From Candidatus Altiarchaeota archaeon (GTDB lineage Archaea > Altiarchaeota > Altiarchaeia > IMC4 > SCGC-AAA252-I15): 64,000 bases of DNA. Positions 3,024-58,777 of this stretch are shown piece after piece (within the stretch, counting starts at the first letter, position 1; every line of letters begins with the position of its first letter). The stretch lies in the NCBI GenBank assembly GCA_043800255.1, contig JAZDNF010000008.1:32001-96000 (forward strand). The letters are read 5' to 3'. The notes under the pieces were generated by a model, which did not search any database, was not told where the DNA came from, and saw nothing but the letters and a program-made list of their open reading frames with translations. The translations under genes and the position numbers were made by a program.

Positions 3024-3150
3024 CGCCGAGGTTTGCGCAAGCCTATCCGGCTTGCTAACCTCTGCGTTCACCTTAACTATTGCCATTAAGAGCCACTAAG
3101 CGAACGAAGTGAGCGCATGTGGCTCATTTGATGAACCTTTGGAAAAGGTT
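3024..3150. repeat. Hairpin-module cluster 3' of tRNA-Ser, including 10-nt copy of tRNA 3' end
   Basis: CGCCGAGGTT at 3024-3033 equals 3151-3160; hairpins at 3090-3125 and 3133-3151. Confidence 0.7.
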
Positions 3151-3307
3151 CGCCGAGGTTGGGATTTGAACCCAAGTGGCCACAAGGACCACGGACTAGC
3201 TGCCACCTTGTCTTGTTTTTTCTTTTTCGTGCACGTTTTTCTTTTTTTCTAAAAAAGAAAAAGGTGCTAGCAGGCCCGCGCGTTAGACCATACTCCGCCA
3301 CCTCGGC
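3151..3307 (-). tRNA. tRNA-Ser(GCT) with 70-nt intron at 37/38 (3198-3267)
   Basis: GCCGAGG/CCTCGGC acceptor, long variable arm, GGTTCAAATCC T-arm, perfect BHB (CTGC/GCAG helix). Confidence 0.95.
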
Positions 3308-3339
3308 ATTGTGTTATCGGGTTTTGTTATCCTCTTGGC

Positions 3340-3436
3340 GAGGTGGTGGGTCTGAGCCCTTGCAGGGCGAAGCTGACCGCCACCTCAGCATTTTATGGCG
3401 ATGTTAACGACCCTCAGGTCGCGACCACCTCGGCAT
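3340..3436 (-). repeat. Two partial copies of tRNA-Ser 5' end, each joined to hairpins
   Basis: CCGCCACCTCAGCATT (~3377-3392) and CCACCTCGGCAT (3425-3436) match the gene's 5' end and leader at ~3295-3310. Confidence 0.75.
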
Positions 3437-3442
3437 AAAAAA

Positions 3443-3619
3443 TTATTCTAGCTTCTCTGCCTCGTCGATGAGCATTATGGGTATGTCGTCTTCCACCCTG
3501 TATTTGAGTTTGCAGGCGTGGCATGTGAGGTAGTGCTCTTTCTTGTTGTTCACGTACTCGAGGTCGCCTTTGCATTTGGGGCATGCGAGTATGTCCAGTA
3601 GTTTTTTGTCTAATGCCAT
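3443..3619 (-). CDS. trm112: Trm112 family methyltransferase activator (58 aa, absent from ORF track)
   Basis: Manual translation MALDKKLLDILACPKCKGDL...CHAC...YRVEDDIPIMLIDEA. Confidence 0.9.
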   Translation of the reverse strand: MALDKKLLDILACPKCKGDLEYVNNKKEHYLTCHACKLKYRVEDDIPIMLIDEAEKLE

Positions 3620-3652
3620 TTTTGGTGTAATATTTTAGTTCAAGGGCTTATA

Positions 3653-4621
3653 TTAATCGCTTTTCCACATGCGGGGGTAGACGCCGGTTTCCATGAAAAC
3701 CCTTTTGGATTTGACTATTTCCCCTTTTTTGAGTTCCAGCATCTGTTTCGAGTCGGTAAGGGCTTTTCCGACTGATATGAGCTCCCCTTTGAGGGTGGTT
3801 ATCGCAACATGGTCTCCTGCTTTTATGCCGGATTCCAGCTTCGACACTCCCGGCGCTTTCAGGGTTGCGCCGTGGCATATGGAGTCAACGGCGCCGTCTT
3901 TGACCCAGATTTTTGGCATCCCCTTGAGGGCGTCTTCCACGTGTGTCAGGCGTTCAATAAGTTTGCGGCTGTCTCCCTGCTTGTGGTATTCGAAGGCGTC
4001 TCTCAGATCATGCAGTCTGATGCAGTCGTCCTCGGTTATCCATCCTACCTTAGTCCTCCTGAGTTCGAGCATGTGCGCTCCGACTCCGAGGACTGTGCCG
4101 ATGTCGTGGCAGAGTTTTCTGACGTATGTGCCTGCCTCGCAGTTCACCTTCAGGAGGACTTTTCTCCCGTCTTTTTCGAGGATGACGATTTTGTGGATTG
4201 TCCTGACTCTGAGCTCTCTTTTGACTGCTGACTTCAGGGGCGGGCGCTGGTATATGCCGCCTGTGAATTCTCTTAGCACGCCTTCCAGGTCTTTGTCAGG
4301 CACTTCCTTGTGCAGTTCCAGGATGCCTACGTACTCTTTGTTCAGGTTCAGGAAGGTCAGCACTCTGGTGGCATACTCTAGTCCTATGGGGAGCACTCCA
4401 GTAACGTTCGGGTCCAGTGTTCCTGAGTAGCCTGCCTTTTCGATGCCAAGCATCCTCTTCACCCACACTGTGACCTGGTGGGATGTGGGGCCGCTTGGCT
4501 TGTTGAGGTAGACGAAGCTCTTTTTCAGTCTTTCTTCGACTGTTCTAGAATCTGGCTCGCAGCCGAAATCTGGGTTCGTCTTCTCCTCGTCTTTTACGAG
4601 AATGTCCTTGGCGCCTTCCAT
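3653..4621 (-). CDS. cbf5: H/ACA RNA-guided pseudouridine synthase Cbf5
   Basis: KPSGPTSHQV, GTLDP catalytic Asp, QRPPLKSAVKR, AGTYVRKLC, PUA domain. Confidence 0.95.
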   Translation of the reverse strand: MEGAKDILVKDEEKTNPDFGCEPDSRTVEERLKKSFVYLNKPSGPTSHQVTVWVKRMLGIEKAGYSGTLDPNVTGVLPIGLEYATRVLTFLNLNKEYVGILELHKEVPDKDLEGVLREFTGGIYQRPPLKSAVKRELRVRTIHKIVILEKDGRKVLLKVNCEAGTYVRKLCHDIGTVLGVGAHMLELRRTKVGWITEDDCIRLHDLRDAFEYHKQGDSRKLIERLTHVEDALKGMPKIWVKDGAVDSICHGATLKAPGVSKLESGIKAGDHVAITTLKGELISVGKALTDSKQMLELKKGEIVKSKRVFMETGVYPRMWKSD

Positions 4622-4622
4622 T

Positions 4623-4859
4623 TCAGGGGAGGTCGGCTTTCTTCATCGCGTCTAACACTGTTTTACTGTCCGCGCCTTTCTTGATTTTCACTGTCGCGGG
4701 GAGGGGTTCGATGTGTTTGATGTTTACTTTGCCTCTTTTGACGTTCTCCCCTTCCACTATTACGGTGTTCTTGTCTGCGGTGTCTGCTATCACGCAGTAT
4801 TCGCCAGCGTCGTTTCCGCGCAGTTTGACGCAGACTCTTCCAACTTCTATCAAAGCCAT
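4623..4859 (-). CDS. rpl14e: 50S ribosomal protein L14e
   Basis: IEVGRVCVKLRG...VNIKHIEP; adjacent to cbf5 as in many archaea. Confidence 0.93.
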   Translation of the reverse strand: MALIEVGRVCVKLRGNDAGEYCVIADTADKNTVIVEGENVKRGKVNIKHIEPLPATVKIKKGADSKTVLDAMKKADLP

Positions 4860-4902
4860 TTTGAGATAAATGATAGGGTGTTCAGCCTTAAAAAGTAAAC
4901 GC

Positions 4903-6315
4903 CTATAGTGTGTCGAGGCAGTCGGGGTCTGCGGGCGGGCACACTGGATTCTGGCCTGGGCAGTTCTGGCATGGCAGGCTATTCCAGTCGACGCAGCAGC
5001 AGGTTTCCCCCTGGAACTCGTAGAAGGCGCTTGCGACGCAGCTTGTCTTGCAATTCTGGGTTATCTGCTGCAGCTTCTGTGAGGCCCAGTCCTTGCACTG
5101 CTGTTGCGTGTTTATCACCGGCGCTCCGAAGACTCCGGTGTTTATCCACTGGTATCCGTTCACGCCCTGGTCATCGCAGTACATCTGGCAGTTAGGATAG
5201 CACAGGCAGTCGCTCTCGCATCCCAGATATATGTCGATGTCCTCGCAGTCGAAATCTGATTCGCACTCCTCTCCTGGCTCCACAACATCGTTGCCGCATT
5301 CGTACTCGTAACAGTAATAGCAGTGGCTGCATGTGTCCCACTGTTTGCAGTATCCGACGTCAGGGTCGTTGCAGTATTTTATGCATTCGGTGTAATTCTT
5401 CAGCACCAGCGCGCCTCCCAATGTTGAGCAGTCTTTGTCCTTGCAGTAGTTGCATGGCGTGCTCTGGTACTGGGAGCATTCTTCACACTCCGCATCGCAG
5501 TTTCCGCCGCAGTTCACATCGTTGTAGAGGCTTCCGCCGCAGGTCACGGAAACTGTCGTGGTAGCCTGTACAGATGTCGTTGGCGTTGATGTGGTAGCTC
5601 CTCCCACGGTTGTCGGCGTCGAGGTCGTTGCTCCGGCAGTTGTTGTTGGTTGTGTCGAAGTTGTTGGGGTCGTGCCCGTCTGGCAGTAGGCTGTGCACTT
5701 GCAGGCTGATTCATCCCAGACGCAGTTCAGCACCGTCTGGCCTCTTGAAGTGCACTGGCTGTTGCAGTGGGCTGTGCAGTCGTCTTTGCCCCAGGCGCAC
5801 TTTTTCGTGCTCGAAACTGGGACTCCCTCATCGTCGGTGCACTGCCCGTTGAGGCATCTTTCAGCGCATGTTTCGACTATCTCGGTCTTTATGCTGCCCA
5901 TGCACTTCGAGTCTGCCGTTCCCGGCTTGCTGCAACGGTATGAGGTTACATCCTGGACTACCTTCTCCTGGTAGCATCTTAGCTGGCCCAGATTCGGGCC
6001 GCCGCAGTCAGCATTTATAGTGCATGTGAACTTTGTGCTCGTGGTAGTCTCAACGCTCGTTGTTGGTTCAGCAGTTGTCGTTGATTCTACAGTGCTGGCG
6101 ACGGTCGTCTCCTCTAAAGTGGTTGTCTTCTCGTCGTTGTCGCATATCGAGTTGTTATCACCGTCCAGGCAGCATTCTTTCCCGACCTGGATGTAGGGCA
6201 CGTTGCAGACAATTTCCGCCTGAGCGGGCGCCTTCTGGCTGGGGGAAGTGCAGCCAGCAGCAAGCATTACAGAGACTAGAAACAGGACTGTGATGATCTT
6301 TTCATTCAGCTTCAT
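4903..6315 (-). CDS. Cys-rich, Thr-rich secreted lipoprotein
   Basis: Signal peptide ending AAGC, CCLDxxxNxICD motif, Thr-rich linkers, many Cys. Confidence 0.8.
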   Translation of the reverse strand: MKLNEKIITVLFLVSVMLAAGCTSPSQKAPAQAEIVCNVPYIQVGKECCLDGDNNSICDNDEKTTTLEETTVASTVESTTTAEPTTSVETTTSTKFTCTINADCGGPNLGQLRCYQEKVVQDVTSYRCSKPGTADSKCMGSIKTEIVETCAERCLNGQCTDDEGVPVSSTKKCAWGKDDCTAHCNSQCTSRGQTVLNCVWDESACKCTAYCQTGTTPTTSTQPTTTAGATTSTPTTVGGATTSTPTTSVQATTTVSVTCGGSLYNDVNCGGNCDAECEECSQYQSTPCNYCKDKDCSTLGGALVLKNYTECIKYCNDPDVGYCKQWDTCSHCYYCYEYECGNDVVEPGEECESDFDCEDIDIYLGCESDCLCYPNCQMYCDDQGVNGYQWINTGVFGAPVINTQQQCKDWASQKLQQITQNCKTSCVASAFYEFQGETCCCVDWNSLPCQNCPGQNPVCPPADPDCLDTL

Positions 6316-6362
6316 CCAACTTCCCAGATAATTATCTGATAGAGTCTATAAAAATCCCCAAA

Positions 6363-7067
6363 TCAGTTGTGAACAGTAACCTTGTTCTCGTAAATCTCAT
6401 AAACTGTCTTATCCCCTCTGATTCCCCCCTTGAGAGTGTGATATCTTGTCACGTCGGCTCTGCCGTCGTTTTTCAGCGTGATGTTCGTGACATTGTCTCC
6501 TCGCGGCTCGCCTGCGACCGGCTTCTCGAAATCCTCATACGATACTTTGAATTCCCGCCCGGACAGTTCGTCTTTTGTGAATTTTATCATGTCTGTCGCA
6601 GTGTCCTTCTCGCCGATGCCGTTCCCCTTGACCAGGTAGACAATGGTGTCCTTTGCTTTCGCGAGCTTGAGCCATTCGTCCAGGAAGCCGCCGATGTCTA
6701 CAGTAGTGTGAGTGTGTGCCAAACCTATCAGCTTCTTCTCTTTATTGACAAGGCACACGTACATGCAGCTTGAGGCGAACTCAGACGCCAGGCTTTCGAG
6801 TTCGTTGGTTATGCGCCCGTATCCCTGGATTATGCTGCCTTCTGATGTGGGGCTTCCCTTCGCCTCCTCTAGGAACGCGTCGGTGAGCCTTCCGTCGCCT
6901 GTCCGGTATTTTTCCCTGCGGGCCAGCCTGAACGTCCAAGTCCCGACCGCGTCCTCAGCTAGTTCAGTCCTCGTCTTCCATCGTTCTCCGACCTGGCGGA
7001 TTTGCTCGACCTCGTCATATTCCCTTCTCTCGTGAGGGGGGTGGCCGGCCTCTCTGGTGACGCTCAT
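6363..7067 (-). CDS. Hypothetical protein with CheD-like deamidase motif
   Basis: SSCMYVCLVN...IGLAH resembles CheD GSC..V.L.D....GGLAH. Confidence 0.55.
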   Translation of the reverse strand: MSVTREAGHPPHERREYDEVEQIRQVGERWKTRTELAEDAVGTWTFRLARREKYRTGDGRLTDAFLEEAKGSPTSEGSIIQGYGRITNELESLASEFASSCMYVCLVNKEKKLIGLAHTHTTVDIGGFLDEWLKLAKAKDTIVYLVKGNGIGEKDTATDMIKFTKDELSGREFKVSYEDFEKPVAGEPRGDNVTNITLKNDGRADVTRYHTLKGGIRGDKTVYEIYENKVTVHN

Positions 7068-7102
7068 AGTATATTACAATACGCTGCCGGCAGATTAATA
7101 GC

Positions 7103-7756
7103 TCAGAGGGTTGAGAAATCTTTCCCGTGTTTTTGGAGGAATTTTTTCAGATTTTTTTGGGGGATCTTGTGAGGTTTCCCTATCAGCTTAGCTCCAACGT
7201 AGACTTTCGCCATCTTCTCAACGAGTTCTGCCATCTTCACGGTATGTTCGACGGTGCGACCGCAGACTAGGGCGCCGTGGTTCGCCAGGAGCGTCCCGTT
7301 CCTGTTCCCAAGAGCCTTCACAGCCTTTGCCCCTATTTTTTCGGTGTTGGCTTCTGCGTATTCTGACACGTTGACTTCTCCGCCTAAGAAGATTGCCATC
7401 TCTTCCAGGAGTACGGGTATCTTTTCCCTGGCTGCTGACAGCATCGTGGCGTACGGCGAGTGCGTGTGTATGACACACTTTGCTTTAGGCTTCGCCCTGT
7501 AGACTGCAGCATGCAATCGATACTCTGATGAGGGTTTCCTGCCTTTGCTGACCTGTGTTCCGTCGAATCTTATGCGTACTATGTCTTCTGCAATCAGCTT
7601 TCCATAGTCGTTGAACGTTGGCGTTATGTAGAGTTCCTCCCTGTCAGGGACTCTGACACTCACATTCCCTTCACCGGTCTCAACCAGTCCCCTCTCGTGT
7701 ATCGCCTTAGCAGCCTTGAGAACCTCTCCCCTGAGCTTCTTCTCTTCTGAGTCCAT
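7103..7756 (-). CDS. Class II aldolase/adducin family protein (fuculose-1-P aldolase-like)
   Basis: GNVSVR, PSSEYRLH, HTHSPYAT, LLANHG. Confidence 0.92.
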   Translation of the reverse strand: MDSEEKKLRGEVLKAAKAIHERGLVETGEGNVSVRVPDREELYITPTFNDYGKLIAEDIVRIRFDGTQVSKGRKPSSEYRLHAAVYRAKPKAKCVIHTHSPYATMLSAAREKIPVLLEEMAIFLGGEVNVSEYAEANTEKIGAKAVKALGNRNGTLLANHGALVCGRTVEHTVKMAELVEKMAKVYVGAKLIGKPHKIPQKNLKKFLQKHGKDFSTL

Positions 7757-9794: not shown

Positions 9795-9965
9795 TGGGCC
9801 TGCGGAGATTTCTTAACCGCGGGGGCTCCCGCCCCCTCAGTTTCAAGTTCTTCCTGAACCCCCGAAACGAATTGCGAGGTCTCTCGACCTCGCGAATGCA
9901 TTATCACGCTCAAGGGGACTGAGCGAAGCGAAGTCGCCGCCGCATGTAAACTGGGCGTGACAGTT
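9795..9965. repeat. Hairpin cassette bounded by 17-bp direct repeat of tRNA-Ile 3' end
   Basis: TGGGCCTGCGGAGATTT at 9795-9811 and 9966-9982; interior is a series of hairpins. Confidence 0.8.
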
Positions 9966-10128
9966 TGGGCCTGCGGAGATTTGAACTCCGGACCTCTCGA
10001 TTTCAGAAGCGACGCGTAATTCGCGTCCTGCACCTCCCGTCTTTTTTCTTTGGGGGTGAAGCACCTTTCTTTTCTAAAGAAAGGGGCTCTATCAGTCGAG
10101 TGCTCTAACCAGTCTGAGCCACAGGCCC
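9966..10128 (-). tRNA. tRNA-Ile(GAT) with 88-nt intron at 37/38 (10002-10089)
   Basis: GGGCCTG/CAGGCCC acceptor, CTCGA/TCGAG anticodon stem, GTTCAAATC; BHB with one U.U mismatch. Confidence 0.95.
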
Positions 10129-10173
10129 TTGTAAGCAAAAGGTGAGTTAATCTTAGTGATTTAATACTAAAAT

Positions 10174-10436
10174 AAGTTTTTCCTAAAAGAAAAAGGCTTG
10201 TCGAGTGCTCAGCGCGAGAAGCTCTGCTTCTCGGCTCGCCAAAATCGCAGTGGCGATTTTGCGCGTAACCAGTCTGAGCCACAGGCCCTTGTTTATTCTT
10301 TAGTTATTATGGGCCATTAAGCGACCGAAAGGGAGCGCATATGGCTCAACCGAGACATCCGTCTCGGTGAGCACGAAGACGAATGTCTTCGTTGCTCCTT
10401 TGGCCAGCCTTTAAAAAGGCTGTGAGCCACAGGCCC
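10174..10436 (-). repeat. Two truncated tandem copies of tRNA-Ile 5' part with inserted hairpin modules
   Basis: 10200-10210 plus 10266-10292 identical to 10095-10132, split by a 55-nt insert; 10423-10436 is a 14-nt copy. Confidence 0.9.
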
Positions 10437-27228: not shown

Positions 27229-28758
27229 CTAGTTGTTTTTAGATTCGCTGATACCTTCAAAATCGATATACCCTCGCGTGGGATCCACATTGATCAATCT
27301 AACACGAACTTTCTGTCCGACAGCCATTCTTTCCCCTCCATGCATGACCCTGCCTTCTACTGGTGGTGAGATAATCCGTACATAAGTTCCCTTTTCAGAA
27401 GCCCCGGTGACAATCCCATCAAATGAGTCCCCTAATCTATCACCCAATAATACCGCTGCCGCTGCCTTTCGCATGAAACGTTCAACCTTCTGAGCAGCTT
27501 TGTCGCGATCAGTACACCACAATGAAAGTTCAATTAACTCTTTTTGAGTATACGGACTTGATTCTTTTGCCAGAACTGATTTAAAAAGCCGTTGAAGAAT
27601 AACATCCACATAACGTCGGTTAGGGGCTGTAGCATGAGTGTAGTCCATAACGGCAAGGCCAAAATGGCCATATGAAGGCTTACCCGGCTCAAGCATGACA
27701 TATTCGCCTGCCCCCAACAACTTTACGATCGTTAAAGACAGATCAGGGAAATGTTCGGAATCAACCTCTTTTTGCCTAATGAGAAATTGTGAAAGCGCCT
27801 TTGAGTCAGGTTCAGAAGGCAAAGTCTCACCGTGGGCGACAGCGACATCCATTATACCCCTCCAGTTTCGAGGAGTGCGGACGACCCTCTGGATTACCGG
27901 AATTCCTGCTTTTTCTAAAAAATTCATCATCGTCACATTGACGGCTATCATAAGGTTCTCAATCAAGTATCGTGCTCGATTTTTCCTTTGGATTACTAAA
28001 CCTTTTACCCTCTCGTTCTCCACAACCGGTTTAGGTTCGATTGTGTCCAATTCAAGAGCCCCTTTGTCCATACGAAATTTTCTTAAACGTTGCGAGGCCT
28101 CATCCTGCAGGGCAAGTTGTTCTTCTAGCCCGGGAATTTCCCGTACGAGATGGGGAGCAGGGCCCTTCCCCTCAAGCCAGTCACCGATTTCTTCATAAAT
28201 AAGCTTTGCTTTATTGCGCACAATCGCACGGTATATGTCTCCTGAGCGGATGCTCCCGTCTAAAAGGACTGCAAACTCGATGACAACTGCCAAGCGGTCT
28301 TGGCCAGCTCGCAGAGAGGAGAGATCAGTAGACAACCTATTTGGAAGCATTGGGAAAATCTCTATCCCAGTATAAACCGATGTGCCATTTTGAACGGCAT
28401 GCTGGTCAGTTTGGGAGTTTTTTGGGGCAAACAAATCAACATCAGCAATAGCAACCTTAACCAGTATCTCTTGGTTGGAACCATGCTCACAGTATTCTAG
28501 TTGATCAAGGTCCAGAGAATCCTCATTATCGATTGAAGACCATAATAATGAACGAAGGTCTCTGGCATCATTTTGACCGCCTTTCAAAAGCTGTTTTACA
28601 TTGATAGCGTTGACTTCATTTATCACAAGCTTTGGGAATTGGGATTGGAAACCATATTTATTCATCGCCTTTCTGGCTATGGCCTTAAGGTCTAGGTTAC
28701 GGTAATTAGCGATATTTCCTATCCTCTCTCCCCCACTTTTTCGCTTAGGACGTTCCAT
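27229..28758 (-). CDS. RNB-domain exoribonuclease (RNase II/R family)
   Basis: SIDNEDSLDLDQ, VAIADV, LIENLMIA, HFGLA...YTHATAPNRRYVD, C-terminal S1; start uncertain. Confidence 0.92.
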   Translation of the reverse strand: MERPKRKSGGERIGNIANYRNLDLKAIARKAMNKYGFQSQFPKLVINEVNAINVKQLLKGGQNDARDLRSLLWSSIDNEDSLDLDQLEYCEHGSNQEILVKVAIADVDLFAPKNSQTDQHAVQNGTSVYTGIEIFPMLPNRLSTDLSSLRAGQDRLAVVIEFAVLLDGSIRSGDIYRAIVRNKAKLIYEEIGDWLEGKGPAPHLVREIPGLEEQLALQDEASQRLRKFRMDKGALELDTIEPKPVVENERVKGLVIQRKNRARYLIENLMIAVNVTMMNFLEKAGIPVIQRVVRTPRNWRGIMDVAVAHGETLPSEPDSKALSQFLIRQKEVDSEHFPDLSLTIVKLLGAGEYVMLEPGKPSYGHFGLAVMDYTHATAPNRRYVDVILQRLFKSVLAKESSPYTQKELIELSLWCTDRDKAAQKVERFMRKAAAAVLLGDRLGDSFDGIVTGASEKGTYVRIISPPVEGRVMHGGERMAVGQKVRVRLINVDPTRGYIDFEGISESKNN

Positions 28759-31259: not shown

Positions 31260-31444
31260 TGCCGAAGGCGGGACTCGAACCCGCGACCTCCAGATAACTC
31301 AGCGTTATCGTGAAATCTTCCCTAGCCTTTGGCTACGGTGCCCGGCCCCAAAATTTTTTCTTTGGGGGTGAAGCACCTTTCTTTTCATAAAAGAAAGGGG
31401 CTCGCTTATGAGTCTGGCACTCTGCGCTACTGAGCTACTTCGGC
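31260..31444 (-). tRNA. tRNA-Met(CAT), elongator type, with 111-nt intron at 37/38 (31296-31406)
   Basis: GCCGAAG/CTTCGGC acceptor, CCAGA/TCTGG stem, GGTTCGAGTCC, perfect BHB; D-loop lacks GG. Confidence 0.9.
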
Positions 31445-31470
31445 GTAACTGGAAATCCAGTTAGCAGATT

Positions 31471-31749
31471 GTACTGTCTTCGGCTCCGGCCTCGACAGTA
31501 CTGAATAATATTATCTTGACGTATTATATTTCTTTTCCATCAACGCTTTTCTTTCCTAAAGAAAAGGGTTGCTGGATTCAATATTATGGGCGTTAGAGTA
31601 TATTAATTTTCTTTTTCGCCAACGCAAACGAGACTTTGTCTCGTTGCGCACGAAGACGCTAGTCTTCGTTGCGTTTTTCTTTTCCCTAAGGAGCGAAGCT
31701 CCTTGGGCGCAGGGAACGAAGTTCCCTCGCGTCTAAAAGAAAAAGGTTG
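31471..31749. repeat. Cluster of T-rich/A-rich hairpin elements with nested double hairpins upstream of tRNA-Met
   Basis: Simple copy at 31541-31571; interrupted copy at 31620-31749; hairpin at 31471-31501. Confidence 0.8.
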
Positions 31750-31788
31750 TTAGGGGTTAAATAGGGGTCGGTTGTAATAGTCTCTTGT

Positions 31789-39490: not shown

Positions 39491-39615
39491 CCCGCCTTAG
39501 CGTAGCCTGGTTTAACGCGGCCGGCTGTAGTTTGGATCAAGAGGTAGAAGCCTCTCAAAGGCCGTAAAAAATAGCAGGCACCGGCAGACCCCCGGTTCAA
39601 ATCCGGGAGGCGGGA
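39491..39615 (+). tRNA. tRNA-Tyr(GTA) with 49-nt intron at 37/38 (39531-39579)
   Basis: C1-G72 acceptor CCCGCCT/AGGCGGG, GCCGG/CCGGC stem, GGTTCAAATCC; relaxed BHB. Confidence 0.95.
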
Positions 39616-39708
39616 AAATTCTTCTTTTTGATGTATTGGCGGGGCTTTATGCCCCGCGATTCGTTATGAGGTTATAGTGCTAACTGCCTTATGCAAGAAA
39701 CCCTATGG

Positions 39709-39912
39709 TTATGTGAGTCCTCCGTTGTTTCCGCCTAGCAGTTCTAGGTACTTGGCGGAGCATTCCACGAGTTTCTGCCTGAGTAGGGGTGCTGACTGCC
39801 AGAAGATAATGCTAACAGTCACCAATGACGCTCCGACTGGACTTAACACGTTCACAAAATCAGAAATAAAAAAGATATAGTCGTCTGCCTGCCTCCGAAG
39901 TGGGTTTTTCAT
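39709..39912 (-). CDS. Small hypothetical membrane protein
   Basis: ATGA overlap with upstream AbrB-like gene; hydrophobic core. Confidence 0.4.
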   Translation of the reverse strand: MKNPLRRQADDYIFFISDFVNVLSPVGASLVTVSIIFWQSAPLLRQKLVECSAKYLELLGGNNGGLT

Positions 39913-40073
39913 TTTCTTTTTTTCCTGGATTCTCCGATTACTGTCAACTCGAGGTTACCTCTCTCGTTGAAATCCCAATCCAGCTCATCCCCCTTCGCAA
40001 GCCCGAGCCGCTTCACCTTCTCCTGCGGAATGCTCACGAAAAATCTTTTTTGGCTTTCCTGAAGCCGCACCAT
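39909..40073 (-). CDS. AbrB/MazE/SpoVT-type DNA-binding protein
   Basis: FFVSIPQEKVKRLGLAKGDELDW; start placed at MVRLQ. Confidence 0.75.
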   Translation of the reverse strand: MVRLQESQKRFFVSIPQEKVKRLGLAKGDELDWDFNERGNLELTVIGESRKKRK

Positions 40074-40278
40074 CGTGCTAACATTATACAAAATATAATA
40101 AAAGATTAATGTTTTCGTATATAAAAGCTTACTTTGGCTCAATCAGACAGCCAGAGCGAGAGGCCGGAGACGTCAAAGCCCAACCCAATCGCATAAAACG
40201 AGGATTTAATGCGGTTCTTGCTTCCGAAGAGCTGACTTTTTACGTTTATAATGGTTACTACCAGATAGGTAAGTTCAC

Positions 40279-41358
40279 ATGGACACAAATGCAGCGGCAC
40301 CCATCGTCTTGAAAGCAGACGCGCCGAGGAGGGCGTTCTGCGTGGCCATGCAGAAGGACAACAAGCCAGTGAGAGTCGAGGGCGAATCCTCTGCCGATTT
40401 CACAACCCTTCTAGAGGAGTCTGATGTAGCGTGGGTCAACTTTGTCGTAGACGACATTAACGCCGATGGAGAGGCTATCGCAACCTCTCTAGGATTCAGC
40501 CAGAATCTGGTTTCCACCCTCCTGACAGGGTTCAGGTCCAACTATGAGGACAGGGACGTCGAGCTGGGGATTATGATACCCGCAGTCGACACCGAGAGAC
40601 TAGAGGTCACCATACACCCTCTGGTAATACTGATCAAAAGAGGCCTTATTCTGACAATCCACGGGAAGAACATAAGCCGGCTGGTTAAGTTCTCAAGATA
40701 CGCGAACACCTTCATGAAGAAGATAAAACAGAACATCCCCTGGCAGGACAAGATGACCATACTCCTGTGGAGGATCATGGACGAGAACAATTCCAAGAAT
40801 TTCGACCACCTCAGGGAAATCGAAGAGCAGGCTGATGAGTTGGCGAAGGACATGATGAACCCGATGACGCCGAGAGACAAGCTCGGTCCGGACATCTACA
40901 GGATGAAACATGCCCTCATAATATACCTCGACTCCCTCTGGGCGACGCTTGACGTAATCCACACCCTAAGATACGGCGACGCTGAAGTCCTGTCAGACAA
41001 CAGTAAGATACTTGAGAGGATATCAGTACTCGCGTCTGACGTTACCAGCCAGATATCAATAAGCGAGCACATGTCAGAGGTGCTGGCATCTGGCCTGGAA
41101 GTCTTACAAACCATATACAACAACCAGCTGCAGATGCTGAACAACAGGCTAGCCTTACTGGCAACATGGCTGGCAATCATCGGCACGGCAGTCCTAGTGC
41201 CCAACACCCTGGCAACGATATTCGGAATCCCAACAATATCAGAACACCTAGACTGGCGCCTCACAATACTGATACTAATCGCCTCAACGCTGCTGTCAGC
41301 TTGGATAGCATACTGGGCCATAAGAGCAAAAGGATTAATACCCAAAAGCGTGGAATAG
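40279..41358 (+). CDS. CorA family divalent cation transporter (divergent signature)
   Basis: Long helical soluble domain, two C-terminal TMs; FGIP instead of GMN. Confidence 0.8.
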   Translation: MDTNAAAPIVLKADAPRRAFCVAMQKDNKPVRVEGESSADFTTLLEESDVAWVNFVVDDINADGEAIATSLGFSQNLVSTLLTGFRSNYEDRDVELGIMIPAVDTERLEVTIHPLVILIKRGLILTIHGKNISRLVKFSRYANTFMKKIKQNIPWQDKMTILLWRIMDENNSKNFDHLREIEEQADELAKDMMNPMTPRDKLGPDIYRMKHALIIYLDSLWATLDVIHTLRYGDAEVLSDNSKILERISVLASDVTSQISISEHMSEVLASGLEVLQTIYNNQLQMLNNRLALLATWLAIIGTAVLVPNTLATIFGIPTISEHLDWRLTILILIASTLLSAWIAYWAIRAKGLIPKSVE

Positions 41359-41426
41359 ATCCTTTCACCAGTAACCGCCCGCCAACCCCCATTTTTATTC
41401 CCCAAAGTTTAATATTAACCTTCGCT

Positions 41427-41470
41427 GCCCCGGTAGTGTCAGCAGCCTTTTAAGAAAAGGCTGGCGAAAA
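41427..41470 (+). repeat. 13-nt copy of tRNA-Asp 5' end fused to CAGCCTTTT..AAAAGGCTG hairpin element
   Basis: GCCCCGGTAGTGT at 41427-41439 equals 41491-41503; element at 41443-41470. Confidence 0.8.
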
Positions 41471-41490
41471 GAGGATAGAACACTAAAATT

Positions 41491-41616
41491 GCCCCGGTAG
41501 TGTAGCGGACTATCATGTAAGCCTGTCGCAACCCTTTTCCGCCTACGGCGCAAAAGCGTTGACGGAAAAAAGATTGCAGTCAGCTTACGACTCGGGTTCG
41601 AATCCCGACCGGGGCG
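41491..41616 (+). tRNA. tRNA-Asp(GTC) with 53-nt intron at 37/38 (41529-41581)
   Basis: GCCCCGG/CCGGGGC acceptor, TAAGC/GCTTA stem, GGTTCGAATCC, BHB (CTGT/GCAG). Confidence 0.95.
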
Positions 41617-41911
41617 TCCAACCCGTAGACCCAATTTAGGGGCCAACAGAGCCCTGCTCTGTATATTTTTCTAGATTCTTCTTATCATAATTGATGGAAT
41701 TACGCGAGTTAGAATATCTATTTAATTCATATGGGAAGAATGAGACCCCAACTATAGCCTATCGGCTGGGGGAGTATTTCTATGACCATCCTGAGCGTTT
41801 TAAATATCTCCAGATAGCAATCGCTGGCCAGATAATGTTTTTGTATCGGATAACCCAGAAACCCGTATATCCGATACATTAGATATAAACCTGTAAGAAC
41901 TAACTAAAGCC

Positions 41912-49427: not shown

Positions 49428-53632
<4,205 letters not shown>

Positions 53633-53828: not shown

Positions 53829-55913
53829 GTGACGACCTCCATTTTCGACGCTAAGTCCATTGCAGTCGTAGGCGCATCAAAGGATAAGAGGAAGGTAGGC
53901 CATGCGGTCATCTACAACCTGAAGAGCACATTCAATGGCAGACTCTACCCAGTAAACCCAAAGGAGGACAGGATACTCGGGCTGAAATGCCATCCTACCG
54001 TTAAGTCCATCGGGAAAAAGGTCGACATGGCCGTCATCGCAGTCCCCGCGAAGATTGTGCCCAGCATACTGGAGGACTGCGGGAAATCGAAAATAAAGAA
54101 TGCAGTCATCATATCAGCGGGCTTCAAGGAGGCTGGGAAGGACGGCGGCAAGCTCGAAATCCAGTGCCTCAAGATAGCGAAAAAACATGGCATAAGGATT
54201 CTGGGGCCGAACTGCCTCGGCGTAATAGACACGGAGTCGGGTTTGAACGCGACCTTCGCAAGCCAGAAGGCCCTCAGAGGGAATATAGCGTTCATGTCGC
54301 AGTCAGGCGCCCTCTGCACCGCCATACTCGACTGGGCTGAGAAGGAGAGGATAGGGTTCTCCAAGTTCGTGTCACTGGGCAACAAGGCAGACCTGTCCGA
54401 GAACGACTTCCTGCAGGCCTTCCTCGAAGACAAGAACACGAAGGTGATTCTCACATACCTGGAGGGCTTCGCTAAAGGGGAGGAGTTCATAAGGCTGGCC
54501 AGGCACGTGTCAAAGTCGAAGCCGATAGTACTGCTAAAGGCAGGCCGCACTGCAGCCGGCGCGAGGGCGGTCGCATCCCACACTGGGACCCTCGCAGGCT
54601 CTGACAGTGCATATGACGCTGCCTTCAGGAAGGCCGGCGTGATAAGGGTTGACAACATCGAAGAACTGTTCGACTATGCCATAGCATTCACGACGCAGCC
54701 GATACCGAAGAGCGAGAACGTCGGCATACTAACCAACGCAGGAGGCCCTGGCATAATAGCGACAGACGCGTGCGAGAGGAAAGGCCTGACGCTCTCAACC
54801 TTCAGCCGCTCGACAGTCGCCAAACTGAGCAAGGGGCTGCCGCCGGCAGCGAACATCTACAACCCGGTCGACGTACTGGGTGATGCATTAGAGGACAGGT
54901 ACGAGTACGCGCTTAAGACGATGCTTCAGGACGGAAGCGTCCACTCTATGATAGTCCTGCTCACCCCCCAGCTTATGACAGACTCGAGAAACGTGGCGAA
55001 TGTTATCATAAAGGCTGCGGAAAAAAGCAAGAAGCCGATACTCTGCAGTTTCATCGGAGGCGTCAAAGTGGAGCAAGGCTCCGCACTTTTGAAGAGGGCC
55101 AGCATCCCCAACTACCAATTCCCTGAGAAGGCGGTCAGCAGCCTGAAGTCGCTTGTCACATACAACCAGATAAGGAGGAGGAAGATGTCAAAGCCCCCGA
55201 TGTTCAGATTCAGGGAGGAGCAGATAGGGGACATCATCGGAAGACACGTTAAGGCCGGCAAGGTCAACATCGGCTTAGAGTCGCTGGATATACTTAGACA
55301 CTGCGGGATCAGAACCTGCAGGTCTTTCACTGCGAAAAACGCGGACGAAGCCGTCAGCTTCCAGAAGAAACTCAAGGGACAGGTGGCGATGAAGATCGTG
55401 TCAGATGACATACTGCACAAGACTGACATCGGATGCGTCGCACTCAACGTCAGAGAGCATGATGTGAGGGCAACCTACAACAGGATAGTCTACAACGCCC
55501 TCAGGTACATGCCGCACGCGAGCATCGACGGGGTCCTGGTGCAGGAGATGGTAGGCGACAGCAAGGAGGTCATAGTAGGCGTGAGCAAGGACCCGCAGGT
55601 AGGCCATCTTGTGATGTTCGGTTTGGGCGGGATATACGTTGAAGTCCTGAAAGACGTCTCATTCGGCGTTACCCCCCTGACAGATGATGAGGCGCTCAGC
55701 ATGATAGAGGACGTCAGAGGCTATGGCATACTGAAGGGCGTCAGAGGCGAGGCGCAGTCTGACATCAGCTCCATAAAGGACGTGCTCCTGAGAGTCTCAC
55801 AGCTTTCAAAAAGATTCCCGGAGATTGTCGAACTCGACATTAACCCCTTGAAGGTTTTCGAAACAGGAAAAGGATGCGTCGCAGTTGACGCGCGCATAAT
55901 ACTCAAAAAATGA
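53829..55913 (+). CDS. acdAB: ADP-forming acetate-CoA ligase, fused alpha-beta
   Basis: AVVGAS, GPNCLG, SQSGA, ASHTG, NPVD, LHKTD, ELDINP. Confidence 0.88.
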   Translation: MTTSIFDAKSIAVVGASKDKRKVGHAVIYNLKSTFNGRLYPVNPKEDRILGLKCHPTVKSIGKKVDMAVIAVPAKIVPSILEDCGKSKIKNAVIISAGFKEAGKDGGKLEIQCLKIAKKHGIRILGPNCLGVIDTESGLNATFASQKALRGNIAFMSQSGALCTAILDWAEKERIGFSKFVSLGNKADLSENDFLQAFLEDKNTKVILTYLEGFAKGEEFIRLARHVSKSKPIVLLKAGRTAAGARAVASHTGTLAGSDSAYDAAFRKAGVIRVDNIEELFDYAIAFTTQPIPKSENVGILTNAGGPGIIATDACERKGLTLSTFSRSTVAKLSKGLPPAANIYNPVDVLGDALEDRYEYALKTMLQDGSVHSMIVLLTPQLMTDSRNVANVIIKAAEKSKKPILCSFIGGVKVEQGSALLKRASIPNYQFPEKAVSSLKSLVTYNQIRRRKMSKPPMFRFREEQIGDIIGRHVKAGKVNIGLESLDILRHCGIRTCRSFTAKNADEAVSFQKKLKGQVAMKIVSDDILHKTDIGCVALNVREHDVRATYNRIVYNALRYMPHASIDGVLVQEMVGDSKEVIVGVSKDPQVGHLVMFGLGGIYVEVLKDVSFGVTPLTDDEALSMIEDVRGYGILKGVRGEAQSDISSIKDVLLRVSQLSKRFPEIVELDINPLKVFETGKGCVAVDARIILKK

Positions 55914-56965
55914 CGACCGCTGTAGTATATCATGAGGGCTGCCTCAAGCACAGGCAGCTGCCAGGACATCCTGAGACACCGGAGAGGCTGAAGTCTACGA
56001 TGGAATACTACGCGAAAAAGGGGGTGCTAGACCATGTGAGACTGCTGAAGCCTGAAAATGCCACTCTGGAGGACATACTTAGAGTCCACGACATAAAACT
56101 AGTAGAGCATATAAGGGAGCTGGCAGAAGGAGGAGGCGGGAGCATAAACTCAGACACATACGTGAGTCCTGAAACCTACGACGCCGCCCTATTGACTGCG
56201 GGAGGCGTTAAGCTCGCTGGAGAGGTTGTCATGACAGGCGAATACGATAATGCGTTTGCGCTGGTGCGCCCCCCAGGACACCATGCTTCAAGGTATGAGG
56301 CAACAGGCTTCTGCTACTTCGACAACGTTTCGGTGATGATAAAGTACCTGCAGCAGAGATACGGCCTGAAGAGGGCGCTAGTTTTCGACTGGGACGCCCA
56401 CAACCCCAACGGCACGATGGACACCTTCTACCATGACCCCACAGTGTTGAACGTCTCGATACACCAGGACCCGCACACACTGTACCCCGGGACAGGGTTC
56501 GTTGAGGACATCGGAGAGGGCAGCGGCAGAGGGTACACCATAAACCTTCCCGTGCCGGCTGGCACAGGAGACGCAGACTATATGCACCTCATAGATGAGG
56601 TCATAACGCCTGCCGCAGAAAGGTTCAGACCCGAACTGATAGTGCTTTCGGCAGGCCAGGACTCACATAGGGATGACCTGCTCTCAGGGCTGTCAGTCAC
56701 AGAGGCAGGCTATGCCGCCATGACCATGAGGTTCATGGAACTGGCTGAAGAGCACTGCAACAGGAGGCTTGTGGTCGAACTCGAGGGAGGATACAATTTG
56801 AACGCCCTCAGAGAGTCGAACTATATGATAATCTCAGCCCTTATGGGAATGAAATTCCTCCCCAATATAACCGGGAAGGTGAGGGAATCAACGAAAGAAC
56901 TGGTAAAAGAATACAATGAGGTGATGATGTCTGCCAGAATATGGGCCGACGCTCCAAGAATATGA
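55910..56965 (+). CDS. Zn-dependent histone deacetylase family protein
   Basis: HPETPERL, RPPGHHA, GFC, DWDAH, SAGQD, LEGGY. Confidence 0.93.
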   Translation: MTTAVVYHEGCLKHRQLPGHPETPERLKSTMEYYAKKGVLDHVRLLKPENATLEDILRVHDIKLVEHIRELAEGGGGSINSDTYVSPETYDAALLTAGGVKLAGEVVMTGEYDNAFALVRPPGHHASRYEATGFCYFDNVSVMIKYLQQRYGLKRALVFDWDAHNPNGTMDTFYHDPTVLNVSIHQDPHTLYPGTGFVEDIGEGSGRGYTINLPVPAGTGDADYMHLIDEVITPAAERFRPELIVLSAGQDSHRDDLLSGLSVTEAGYAAMTMRFMELAEEHCNRRLVVELEGGYNLNALRESNYMIISALMGMKFLPNITGKVRESTKELVKEYNEVMMSARIWADAPRI

Positions 56966-58017
56966 AAGGCATACTGATAAGCTCCACGGAGCCCTACTCC
57001 GGGAAAAGCGCAATCGTCGTCGGGCTGACGCTCGCGTTGAGGAAGAGAGGATACGACGTCGGCTTCATGAAGCCTGTCGGCAACCTGATAACAGACGTTG
57101 ACGGCGTATTGTGCGACGAGGACACGCTTAAGATAATAGACGCCTTGAGGATCAGGGAGCCGCACGAGCACGTGTGCCCCATCCTGCTGACCGACAGCCT
57201 GCTTGTTGACGTTCTGAGCGGGCAGAGCAAGAGGATAAAGGAGAAAATCAGGGAAGCCTACGACAGACTGAAGAAGGGCAGAGACGTGATGCTGGTCGAA
57301 GGCCTTGGAGATTTCGGAGGCGGCGCAATGATGGGCCTATCCGACATCGACATGGCGAAACTCCTCGATCTGAGGATACTGCTGATAGTAAAATACGGCT
57401 CAGTGTACGCGGTCGACAGCCTGCTCAAGGACATCAGTTTCATAAAAGACAGGCGGACGCTTGTCGGAGTAATCCTAAACGACGTCAAGCCGGCGCGCAT
57501 GAACGAAGTCAAAACCAAGGTGAAGCCATTCCTGGAGAGGAGAGGCTTAAGAGTATTGGGCATACTGCCGAGGGACGACATACTGCGCTCGATAAAAGTC
57601 TCCGACATAGTGGAGCAGCTGCACGGGAAGGTCCTCGCAGGCGAGGACTACCTTGACAACCTTGTCAGGAACATAGTCGTCGGAGCCATGGAACCGCACA
57701 ACGCACTGCGCTTCTTTAGGAGAGTAGACGACAAGATTGTGGTGTCAGGCGGCGACAGGTCTGTCGTCCTGACCGCGGCACTGGAGACGTCTACAAAATG
57801 CCTGCTGCTCACCGGAAACCTTAAGCCGACCGCCCAGCTGCTCGCGAGAGCGGAGGAGAGGCACGTGCCTGTGATACTAGTGCCTGACGATACCGCATCG
57901 ACTGTCTACAGGCTGGGGGAGATGCACTCCAGGATAAGAGTCTCAGGCAGCAGGAAAGTGAGCAGGATGAAGTCCATGGTGGAGAAGAACGTAGACCTGA
58001 AGGCGATACTGAGATAG
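56962..58017 (+). CDS. Phosphotransacetylase N-terminal family protein (BioD-like P-loop + DRTGG)
   Basis: SGKS, FMKPVG, LVEG, GGDR, LTG; lacks PTA catalytic domain. Confidence 0.88.
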   Translation: MKGILISSTEPYSGKSAIVVGLTLALRKRGYDVGFMKPVGNLITDVDGVLCDEDTLKIIDALRIREPHEHVCPILLTDSLLVDVLSGQSKRIKEKIREAYDRLKKGRDVMLVEGLGDFGGGAMMGLSDIDMAKLLDLRILLIVKYGSVYAVDSLLKDISFIKDRRTLVGVILNDVKPARMNEVKTKVKPFLERRGLRVLGILPRDDILRSIKVSDIVEQLHGKVLAGEDYLDNLVRNIVVGAMEPHNALRFFRRVDDKIVVSGGDRSVVLTAALETSTKCLLLTGNLKPTAQLLARAEERHVPVILVPDDTASTVYRLGEMHSRIRVSGSRKVSRMKSMVEKNVDLKAILR

Positions 58018-58043
58018 CGGCGCGTAGACAACGGAAACCAAGT

Positions 58044-58454
58044 TCACCTATCGTGAAAGATGCAGGATAATGCGTCAGATACGATTTTCCAGTGGTCGAA
58101 AGCCAGTTCCGGGAGCTTTTCCACGTCGAACATCCTGCACTCGGCAGCGTCATCGCCTCCGGCAGGCTCACCCGACAGCCTCTCGCAGAGGAACACTATG
58201 GAAACGCTGTGGCCTCTCGGGTCTCTGCCAGGGTCAGAGTATACGCCCAATAGCTCTCGAACCTTCACCTTAATGGAAGTTTCCTCATAGACTTCTCTGA
58301 CGACGGCATCCTCGACCCGTTCACCATATTCGACGAATCCGCCAGGAAGAGCCCACATGCCCTTAAACGGCTGGTTCCCCCTCCTGATGAGGAGTATCTT
58401 ATCGTCTTCGACGACCACACCGTCAACCATCAGACTCGGCTTCCTATCGTCCAT
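58044..58454 (-). CDS. NUDIX hydrolase (ADP-ribose pyrophosphatase-like)
   Basis: WALPGGFVEYGE...REVYEET, RDPRGH, LAFDH. Confidence 0.92.
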   Translation of the reverse strand: MDDRKPSLMVDGVVVEDDKILLIRRGNQPFKGMWALPGGFVEYGERVEDAVVREVYEETSIKVKVRELLGVYSDPGRDPRGHSVSIVFLCERLSGEPAGGDDAAECRMFDVEKLPELAFDHWKIVSDALSCIFHDR

Positions 58455-58492
58455 CCTACAGAAGTTAGAACAATTTTACTAGGTGCTGTTGA

Positions 58493-58701
58493 GGCGACTT
58501 CGTTGCGCTCAGCCCCATCGCAATACTCCTCTTTAGGGTCGTCGAGAGGGCGAAGCCCACGAAGACGGCCCCTTTTCGCCAGCCTCCCAATCGACCTTTG
58601 GTCGATGTTGGAGAGCTTGAAGCTCTCCGACTTTCGGGAAGCGAAGCTTCCCAAAATGGGCGCAAGTTGCCGAAGGCAACTTCGCGTTTGTTAAAAGGCT
58701 G
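58493..58701. repeat. Nested hairpin-element cluster 3' of tRNA-Val
   Basis: Outer element 58573-58585 + 58687-58701 split by 101-nt multi-hairpin insert; module 58493-58516 matches reverse complement of 9914-9938. Confidence 0.85.
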
Positions 58702-58703
58702 AG

Positions 58704-58777
58704 TGGGCCCAGCCGGATTCGAACCGGCGATCTTCGCCTCGTAAAGGCGACGTCATAACCAGCTAGACTATGGGCCC
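58704..58777 (-). tRNA. tRNA-Val(TAC), intronless
   Basis: GGGCCCA/TGGGCCC acceptor, TCGCC-TTTACGA-GGCGA, GGTTCGAATCC. Confidence 0.96.

Follow-up and report, generated by a model that had tools for sequence, protein, structure and literature searches.

Oriented hairpin repeats with mirrored purine tails at tRNA genes of the Altiarchaeota: a phylum-wide family with a candidate triplex-type unit

We describe a family of short hairpin elements found at tRNA genes in a 64,000-nt stretch of DNA (the window; C11:32001-96000) from a Candidatus Altiarchaeota archaeon, whose 17-contig, 1.75-Mb metagenome assembly (G000) is 93% complete; further G numbers denote comparison genomes. The unit is 45-60 nt long, oriented and non-coding, and it ends in a purine-rich tail that repeats the purine arm of the hairpin backwards. 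Its anatomy, covariation, distribution and turnover, and the duplicated gene ends beside it, are plain in the genomes we compared. On balance, we judge it probable that these copies belong to a phylum-wide family of oriented non-coding repeats with a fold under selection and a unit of triplex type, which spreads slowly without a dedicated transposase.

The tail of the element mirrors its purine arm

An alignment of copies and a strict descriptor scan gave the architecture of the unit, described here in 5' to 3' direction along the tRNA-sense strand. It opens with a 4-bp stem, mostly NNAC, and one unpaired C. The T/C arm (7-15 nt) and its A/G complement then enclose a loop of about 3 nt. Another unpaired C and GTNN, the partner of the stem, come next, and after them a 3-nt linker, which is ACG in 28 copies, GCG in 7 and ATG in 3, and an A/G tail. 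Across 84 distinct sequences, 98.1% of the hairpin cells are paired and 16/16 pairs vary on both sides, a result reached by 0/500 shuffles in this model-fitted alignment. The 1x1 internal loops are C·C in 59/62. An Rfam scan of the window with E up to 1 returned tRNA matches and two weak unrelated matches, and none to the element.

A sequence-only reading of the window had described a stem, a T/A hairpin and an A-rich tail. That order is correct, but the reading overlooked what defines the element: its tail repeats the purine arm in reverse, with the spacing of the Gs inverted (2,3,5 in the arm becomes 5,3,2 in the tail, 3,3,5 becomes 5,3,3, and 2,3,4 becomes 4,3,2). In G000, 18 canonical copies with 12 arm patterns passed the strict descriptor, with mirror scores from 7/7 to 12/12. 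The mirror run averages 11.2 nt over 61 unique copies (49 distinct arms, 31 sources). When tails were swapped in from copies with other arms, the mean fell to 3.2-3.45 nt, and the highest of 2000 permutation means was 5.46. Copies from relatives include strongly asymmetric arms that are mirrored exactly, one of 15 nt and several of 14 nt. The spacer from purine arm to tail (the unpaired c, the stem strand and ACG) is 8 nt in 43, 9 nt in 17 and of another length in 6 of the 66 unique copies. With 5-nt arms the mirror test gave 110 in the genome and 67 in the control, which is no separation, and the criterion was tightened.

Two other explanations of the tail were tried and rejected. If the tail were a shifted Watson-Crick partner of the pyrimidine arm, a direct block would be needed; asymmetric arms follow the mirror instead, the mirror block being longer than the direct block in 56/61 copies, equal in 5 and shorter in 0. 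RNAfold does use such shifted pairing in the Met2 and Cys precursors. A K-turn at the ACG-GAAAA segment was dismissed by eye, the opposing strand lacking GA.

A shorter form of the element has a 5-bp GC-containing stem, T3-5, a loop, A3-5, the stem partner, ATC, GCG or GCC, and A3-4. It occurs in 15 copies genome-wide compared with 1 in the reversed-genome control, mostly directly 3' of tRNAs.

The sequence relation is that of an intrastrand triplex motif

As a sequence relation, the unit is a motif of the intrastrand triplex (H-DNA-like) kind in which the 4-bp stem and the C·C mismatch are conserved. We read it as such because a mirror repeat is meaningless for Watson-Crick pairing or for a two-fold symmetric protein and is required for a triple helix. 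Moreover, a mirror repeat cannot arise by copying. That a triplex actually forms, and on which strand or polymer, we infer, and four arrangements may be considered. The tail could lie antiparallel on the sense-strand hairpin (A·A-T / G·G-C); a pyrimidine motif (T·A-T and scattered C+·G-C) could arise on the complementary strand; the duplex could adopt H-DNA, for which purine arm, 8-nt spacer and tail would be a textbook mirror repeat; or the U-rich arm of the transcript could bind the duplex of the downstream tail, its parallel complement. The excess of G·U pairs over C·A mismatches in the hairpins (8 versus 1), together with orientation with the gene, favors the sense strand. Chemistry would favor the pyrimidine motif, because purine-motif triplexes do not form in RNA according to the accessible text of PMC4666352.

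This restriction on RNA is itself one of several points that weigh against the triplex reading. The 8-9-nt spacer holds a paired 4-bp stem that the tail would need to pass. Copies were collected with a model that contains the tail consensus, which biases detection toward tails, although not toward the coupling of arm to tail, and 18/88 model hits, of variant or GC-substituted form, could not be parsed as mirror copies. A purine motif this rich in A should be weak, and T5-T6 runs inside introns are expected to stop the archaeal polymerase. In the short introns of Met2, Leu-TAA and Ala no more than 4-10 nt separate the end of the tail from the 3' splice site, and a complete triplex would thereby exclude the bulge-helix-bulge (BHB) fold. 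Lastly, phylum-wide presence at the same intron position combined with genome-specific stems could equally reflect a host function with concerted evolution. The boldest version of the triplex reading holds that selection maintains an intramolecular triplex in hundreds of copies as a conformational device on stable-RNA genes, that the 5' stem strand toggles between triplex hairpin and splicing helix so that most tRNA introns are triplex-gated, and that copying is defined by RNA ends and proceeds without a recognizable reverse transcriptase or transposase. We consider that version doubtful.

In several introns the first 4-6 nt can pair with the hairpin-closing strand or with the intron 3' end, the latter as the outer helix of the splicing motif. 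Between G043/G045 and G044, which belong to one genus, compensating changes are found at all three places (5' stem strand, closing strand and intron 3' end). A downstream copy of CGT plus stem pairs with the closing strand plus ACG in the introns of Gly, Leu-TAG and Thr-TGT, whose precursors are predicted to fold into three-way junctions in which the tail makes a closed loop. We also considered an intron that would serve at once as terminator and as internal promoter, similar to split tRNAs, and rejected it because only about 10 nt lie between tail and 3' exon.

Copies are concentrated at tRNA genes, on the tRNA strand

A scan of G000 with a covariance model (R1) identified 32 distinct full-length sites. 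Sixteen of these long copies start tRNA introns, 0-2 nt after position 37, and five lie at or beside the tRNA discriminator base. Three are 40-90 nt upstream of a tRNA, three follow a C/D box small RNA (sRNA) or fragments of it, three are antisense near a tRNA, one separates a protein gene from a diverged 66-nt duplicate of its start, and one has no assigned context. The tRNA genes with 120 nt on either side make up 0.66% of the genome and hold 26/32 long copies (binomial P about 2e-51). These data support the earlier proposal of one oriented, modular, multi-copy family concentrated at tRNA genes, and the genome-wide enrichment asked of it is present. The concentration is strong but not exclusive, given the copies after a C/D box sRNA and at the duplicated protein-gene start. 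The tRNA-sense orientation, which was claimed to be invariable and is so within the window, holds for 24 of the 26 copies with 2 opposite, and a third antisense copy lies ~300 nt from tRNA-Arg.

The element begins 18/26 intron-bearing tRNA predictions in G000 and is absent from 8/26. At gene ends, five long and six short copies start at or within 4 nt of tRNA 3' ends, which puts a T-rich run where an oligo-T terminator is expected; termination there is a prediction. In relatives, copies also start 1-13 nt past stop codons, in sense orientation.

Three loci outside the window deserve description. At C13:11524-11861 (+) the element comes directly after a C/D box sRNA that has C, D', C' and D boxes and the terminal stem GGCAG/CTGCC; a truncated 28-nt copy of the sRNA 5' end plus element lies upstream, and a 14-nt copy of the sRNA 3' end plus element lies downstream. 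The stretch after the tail at this locus is complementary to the D box and terminal stem, and the window's tRNA-Asp intron matches it at the intron 3' end. At C16:37700-37960 (-) the order is the diverged ~66-nt duplicate of a protein-gene start, the element and the true gene start; the duplicate would read as a short upstream open reading frame that stops in the hairpin loop. The N-terminus of the protein (MxYKVKDIxLA..) resembles that of S-adenosylhomocysteine hydrolase. The 93-nt tRNA-Trp intron at C8:117885-118049 (-) is free of the element and has box-like motifs (TGATG, CTGA), like the C/D sRNA-bearing tRNA-Trp introns of other archaea.

Five of the six tRNA loci in the window carry the element

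The window has six tRNA loci: Ser, Ile, Met, Tyr, Asp and Val (Table 1). ARAGORN at default settings found 1/6 (Val only) and Rfam at gathering score 2/6 (Val, Met). When long introns were permitted, Ser, Met, Tyr, Asp and Val were recovered by ARAGORN or Rfam, and ARAGORN with introns allowed placed introns of 40-113 nt in nearly every tRNA. Removing the intron at 37/38 or at another site restores the cloverleaf, and both programs recover tRNAs across the inserts. A central helix of the BHB kind (4 bp between two 3-nt bulges at the splice sites) can be drawn by eye for Asp and Leu, and minimum-energy folds differ between precursors. Standard tRNA finders thus overlook most tRNA genes of the phylum.

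The sequence-only reading had reported the element at Ser, Ile, Met, Asp and Val, and we could verify all five from the sequence, with Tyr as the locus without it. The reported placements were likewise borne out: four intron starts (Ser, Ile, Met, Asp), two 3' ends (Ser, Val), truncated 5' copies (Ile, Asp) and a copy upstream of Met. The variant-2 element of the Ile intron also occurs in the introns of Met, Glu, Val-GAC and C5 9243. The 40-mer that had been quoted as an example occurs once, at 31532-31571 (-), with 0 matches in 100 shuffles.

Table 1. tRNA genes, element copies, GC-hairpin modules and duplicated gene ends in the window
Feature	Position	Strand	Evidence or remark
10-nt duplicate of tRNA-Ser 3' end, closing a ~115-nt 3' insertion	3024..3033	-	sequence
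GC hairpin module B (..CATGCGC..CGCTTAG..), Ser 3' flank	3086..3126	-	recurs at C8 133233-133269 (92%) and C8 212526-212549
Short element directly 3' of tRNA-Ser (GAACC TTTT cc AAA GGTTC atc AAA)	3127..3151	-	sequence; short-form scan
tRNA-Ser(GCT), ~70-nt intron (about 3198-3267)	3151..3307	-	Rfam RF00005 38.9 bits; ARAGORN with introns; sequence
Long element, Ser intron start: GCAC, c, T5CT6, aga, A7GA5, c, GTGC, acg, mirror tail A5GA6	3213..3267	-	model R1 80.8 bits; mirror score 12/12
17-nt duplicate of tRNA-Ile 3' end (T-loop to discriminator), closing a ~150-nt GC-module insertion (9812-9966)	9795..9811	-	sequence
tRNA-Ile(GAT), long intron	9967..10128	-	T-arm/acceptor scan and sequence reading; ARAGORN label Ser
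Variant-2 element, Ile intron start: GAGC CCCTTTCTTT aga AAAGAAAGG t GCTT, linker CACCCCC, tail AAAGAAAAAAG	10041..10089	-	sequence
Second partial tRNA-Ile 5' copy: positions 1-23 (10266-10288), GC-module insert, positions 24-34 (10200-10210), truncated T-rich hairpin	10176..10288	-	sequence
GC hairpin modules upstream of tRNA-Ile; 91 nt at 97.8% identity to C11 96780-96870 upstream of tRNA-Met2	10300..10398	-	
Short element directly after the 14-nt tRNA-Ile 5' copy	10399..10422	-	sequence; short-form scan
14-nt copy of tRNA-Ile 5' end	10423..10436	-	sequence
tRNA-Met(CAT), 111-nt intron	31260..31444	-	Rfam 52.6 bits; ARAGORN
Variant-2 element, Met intron start; stem GAGC/GCTT with G·T wobble	31351..31403	-	model R1 27.7 bits; sequence
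Hairpin modules between free element and tRNA-Met: CAGTAC..GTAC, then AATCTGC..CTGGATTTCCAG	31445..31503	-	sequence
Free-standing long element upstream of tRNA-Met; contains the 40-mer	31523..31571	-	model R1 53.7 bits; mirror score 9/9
Long element upstream of tRNA-Met with two nested GC-module insertions (in the loop; between purine arm and closing stem)	31607..31749	-	sequence
tRNA-Tyr(GTA), 49-nt intron, no element (negative locus)	39491..39615	+	ARAGORN with introns
14-nt copy of tRNA-Asp 5' end (positions -1 to +13), then short element	41426..41439	+	sequence
Short element after truncated tRNA-Asp 5' copy	41443..41470	+	sequence; short-form scan
tRNA-Asp(GTC), 53-nt intron; first 14 nt (41490-41503) repeat 41426-41439	41490..41620	+	ARAGORN with introns
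Long element with GC-rich distal hairpin, Asp intron start; orthologous form in G036	41529..41577	+	model R1 29 bits
Short element (CAGCC TTTT ... GGCTG gcg AAAAG), 2 nt past tRNA-Val 3' end; several GC hairpins nested in loop	58572..58701	-	sequence
tRNA-Val(TAC), intronless	58703..58777	-	ARAGORN; Rfam

Two further features of the window were noted. A weak fluoride-riboswitch-like match at 56836-56940 (+) scores 21.8 bits against a gathering score of 34, lies within or overlaps a coding sequence and is probably due to chance. An RNase II/R-type exonuclease gene at 27229-28758 (-), with RNB and S1 domains (E 7.6e-76), belongs to a class that is not universal in archaea; the enzyme could bear on the decay of structured leaders, trailers and introns.

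GC-rich modules nest in the element and gene ends are duplicated beside it

Separate GC-hairpin modules recur between loci, nest in the element and shift or vanish between close strains, as the earlier reading had in part noted. One 49-nt double-hairpin module is 100% identical at three loci (window 31686-31736, C13:42678-42726 and C16:63574-63622) and occupies the loops of host elements in both orientations relative to the host hairpin. Another GC module has five copies, part of the insert nested in the Val 3' element recurs on C7 and C15, and the composite at 31445..31503 also adjoins tRNA-Arg on C13. The module stretches of tRNA-Ile and of tRNA-Met2, which lies just beyond the window end, are each preceded by a 5' tRNA fragment plus short element. 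At 31623-31754 G000 has 130 nt of nested GC hairpins, where a ~95%-identical groundwater strain contig has 31 nt, a plain element.

In addition to the duplicated ends listed in Table 1, G000 has duplications at tRNA-Glu (18 nt), the tRNA-Arg 3' end (16 nt), a C/D sRNA (28 and 14 nt) and the protein-gene start. Direct repeats of at least 12 nt flank 4/32 copies in G000 and 14/64 in other genomes (12-32 nt), compared with 2/2000 control sites, so that about a fifth of copies have duplicated gene ends on their flanks. This result speaks against the suggestion that the elements move without target duplication. Repeats elsewhere are mostly tRNA 5' ends up to the D-loop or anticodon stem, or 3' ends from the T-arm. 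Duplication lengths vary from 10 to about 66 nt; the novel joint is always the 5' edge of the element, while on its outer side the repeat reaches an RNA end exactly or to within 4 nt. Because of these boundaries, neither a fixed-length transposase duplication nor a site-specific integrase fits. Tandem duplication or template switching at a structure that causes stalling could have produced the duplicated ends, as could an intermediate defined by RNA.

Two species with Altiarchaeum-type metagenome-assembled genomes (MAGs; L022:3232-3283 and L032:4753-4804) share one arrangement: first a copied protein-gene start, next the element, last the full gene. Both copies take in 8 nt upstream of the ATG, and the L032 repeat is 31 nt long.

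The family is old and phylum-wide, and single insertions turn over

Model R1 matches 55/61 genomes of the phylum Altiarchaeota, in 30/31 genera and all 9 families, with 1-54 hits per genome. A strict DNA pattern run against 185,579 species' genomes matched four MAGs only, two labelled Altiarchaeales or Altarchaeum and two filed in a different, larger phylum. The same pattern gave 0 matches in a viral contig collection, with two subtypes covered. Three genomes filed under the larger phylum (G061, G062 and G074; loci L017-L021, L023-L031, L033 and L034) have 24-34 copies each, and many copies are found in only 3/101 sampled genomes of that phylum. Their copies have a bulged closing stem (CAGC / G-A/T-CTG), with a GC hairpin and a T-rich tract after the tail; they start Ala, Asp, Cys and Thr tRNA introns and follow stop codons by 1-13 nt. 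For these putative outsiders to the phylum one protein, CDC48, gave 54% identity, compared with 57% for a same-order and 50% for a same-class genome.

The tRNA-Asp locus allows the same site to be compared between genomes. Its 5' exon was found in 43/61 genomes. Among the 30 loci that were read, 16 are intronless and 14 have an intron at 37/38, and in 12 of these 14 a hairpin element opens the intron. Its type differs: G000 and G036 have the long form, seven genomes a short CAAAC/GGAAAC form, two a GCGGCC form and one the variant form. Intron presence differs even within genera (G033 versus G034; G029 versus G030). These data indicate gain, loss and replacement at an orthologous site. If the modules were fixed and orthologous across distant relatives, static regulatory sites would be implied; the family is indeed phylum-wide and old, yet its single insertions are patchy. 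A gene flanking the Asp locus was found in 5/20 relatives, in none of which tRNA-Asp adjoins it.

A single study contributed four public DNA runs whose contigs span the loci with about 95% identity; no RNA run was among the public runs listed for the sequence. In two groundwater runs, contigs connect tRNA-Tyr at its 3' end with the start of tRNA-Asp (39615 to 41488), skipping 1872 nt, and others skip the Asp intron. We do not use these joints as evidence: their matching sides are short (28-36 nt), so they probably come from other community members with adjacent intronless genes.

Alternative accounts of spread and function

The elements occupy the discarded parts of stable-RNA transcription units: intron starts (37/38), the stretch after 3' ends, and leaders. 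We propose that they spread and are lost slowly through duplication or recombination that joins the 5' edge of the element to a gene end or tRNA loop. Such events would leave gene ends duplicated, GC-hairpin modules would insert into element loops, and no dedicated transposase would be involved. The sequence-only reading had instead suggested palindromes of the REP/REPIN (repetitive extragenic palindromic) or IS200/IS605 kind, moved in trans by an HUH (Y1) enzyme on single-stranded DNA and tolerated through splicing. A hairpin-based, oriented, non-coding multi-copy family would suit such an enzyme, as would the entry of modules into hairpin loops in either orientation, insertion points in tRNA cloverleaf loops and Y1 matches in 21/61 genomes of the phylum. 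However, G000 has 27-32 copies and no match to Y1 (PF01797), reverse transcriptase (PF00078) or TnpB (PF07282); the window has no mobilizer, as had been stated, and a profile search found a single tyrosine recombinase in the genome. Across the phylum, 36/55 element-bearing genomes lack a Y1 match, and the Spearman correlation between Y1 and copy number is 0.045. The richest genomes have none or one (54 copies and 0 Y1 in G046, 31 and 0 in G048, 43 and 1 in G005), whereas G013 has 4 element hits and 17 Y1. No Y1 gene flanked by the element was seen, although no systematic search was made. Many copies also lie between direct repeats, and we consider movement by Y1 very improbable. Spread through RNA would be another route: element RNAs (introns, leaders, trailers) would be ligated to RNA ends or tRNA fragments, copied to DNA and recombined back, which would explain junctions and duplicated segments bounded by RNA ends and tRNA loops. 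The start of duplicated segments lies 0-4 nt away from the mature 5' end, and their stop lies within or at the D-loop (13, 14, 18 and 21-23 in G000 and G019; 15, 23, 23 and 29 in other genomes), with one stop at the anticodon loop (position 34), and others span T-arm or T-loop to the mature 3' end. The same boundaries appear at the 5' and 3' ends of a C/D box sRNA and at a protein-gene start, and intron copies begin at the 5' splice site. Re-insertion of circularized archaeal sRNA was proposed earlier, as far as the accessible part of PMC6009581 goes. Nevertheless, the absence of a reverse transcriptase match from a 93%-complete genome speaks against this route, selection alone could keep junctions at gene boundaries, and the cloverleaf loops of single-stranded DNA would be just as exposed. 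An RNA route is in our view improbable.

The slow, transposase-free spread that we favor must also be weighed against the absence of mobility. The element may be a host cis-acting module (a terminator or insulator, a protector of RNA 3' ends or precursors, or a splicing switch) that is inherited vertically and homogenized by gene conversion or by co-evolution with a factor. Presence in 55/61 genomes, a fixed start (in introns just after position 37, at the discriminator base after 3' ends), the 24-to-2 strand bias and the sense copies just past stop codons in relatives are all consistent with a host module. So are the T-rich tracts resembling the pyrimidine arm that follow intronless tRNA-Asp genes, the clear orthology of the Asp introns of G000 and G036, the alternative 5' stem pairing with its three-place compensating changes (G043/G045 versus G044) and, as predictions, the three-way-junction folds of the Gly, Leu-TAG and Thr-TGT precursors. 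On the other hand, 16/30 tRNA-Asp genes are intronless, at least three element types occupy the same site within one family, copy number spans 1 to 54, and tRNA-Tyr and 8/26 introns of G000 manage without the element. A static signal does not predict duplicated gene ends around copies, and identical 49-nt modules at three loci suggest recent copying. We regard a host module as possible, if rather unlikely. Finally, the arms are low-complexity A/G and T/C runs from a metagenome assembly, which could invite coincidence or artefact as an explanation. We treat this as rejected: shuffle and reversed-genome controls were negative, arm-tail covariation is far above permutation, and copies occur in 55 independently assembled genomes, with contigs from four runs spanning the loci in the groundwater study.

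Comparison with known systems

Literature searches, with subscription journals and supplements outside their coverage, found no prior description of the element, which looks undescribed so far. Like REP sequences, bacterial interspersed mosaic elements (BIMEs) and REPINs, the copies are short, palindromic, non-coding, multi-copy and oriented, and they lie between genes just after gene ends. Unlike REP/REPIN systems with RAYT, G000 has no Y1 match and the phylum shows no correlation with Y1, the unit is a single hairpin plus tail rather than an inverted doublet, and there are flanking duplications, which also set the family apart from IS200/IS605-derived palindromes. MITEs (miniature inverted-repeat transposable elements) differ as well, since the present unit has one internal hairpin, no terminal inverted repeats and no fixed duplication length. 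Gene-end duplications with RNA ends and tRNA loops as their limits point to a pathway of insertion or duplication that lies outside the usual transposon classes.

In the Thermoproteales, tRNA introns are reportedly shared or 'transposed'. As far as the accessible accounts of shared archaeal tRNA introns go, the present case is similar in that BHB introns of different tRNAs resemble each other within a genome and have been gained and lost repeatedly. It differs in that the shared part is a structured element with a mirror tail, which is also found in 3' flanks and leaders, at an sRNA and at protein-gene ends. In Asgard archaea, tRNA introns were gained repeatedly and their route of arrival is unknown, according to the available part of bioRxiv 10.64898/2026.10.13.758758; measured against that account of an origin still open, the element is a concrete, sequence-defined candidate source of archaeal tRNA introns.

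The closest structural parallel we can name from the accessible text of Holder et al. 2015 (PMC4666352) is BoxC/TMECO, a repeat of enterobacteria and cyanobacteria with a class II purine-motif intrastrand triplex. Both are multi-copy and intergenic and place a pyrimidine stem, loop, purine stem, loop and mirrored purine stem on one strand; a pyrimidine motif could form on the complementary one, and there is a link to local rearrangement. By the class II definition in that text (pyrimidine stem, complementary purine stem, mirrored purine stem), the present element belongs, with a mean mirror run of 11.2 nt in 61 copies. The search rule given there allows stems of 6-15 nt and loops of 1-6 nt; the stems here are 7-15 nt but the second loop is 8-9 nt, so the finder of PMC4666352, as described in that text, would miss the element. 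The element further differs from BoxC/TMECO, as presented there, in being A/T-rich rather than G/C-rich, with an extra 4-bp closing stem and a conserved C·C mismatch, and in being archaeal, tied to tRNA introns and gene ends, oriented with transcription and host to nested modules.

The unit also resembles H-DNA mirror repeats such as (GAA·TTC)n in having a homopurine·homopyrimidine mirror with a short spacer and a purine-rich sense strand. Repeats of this type impede transcription and provoke recombination. Mirror covariation as deep as that seen here would be among the clearest comparative signs of a triple helix as a selected cellular structure rather than a by-product of repeats. Unlike (GAA·TTC)n, the present units are short and precisely bounded, have their own complementary arm, and are kept by compensating changes rather than being expandable microsatellites.

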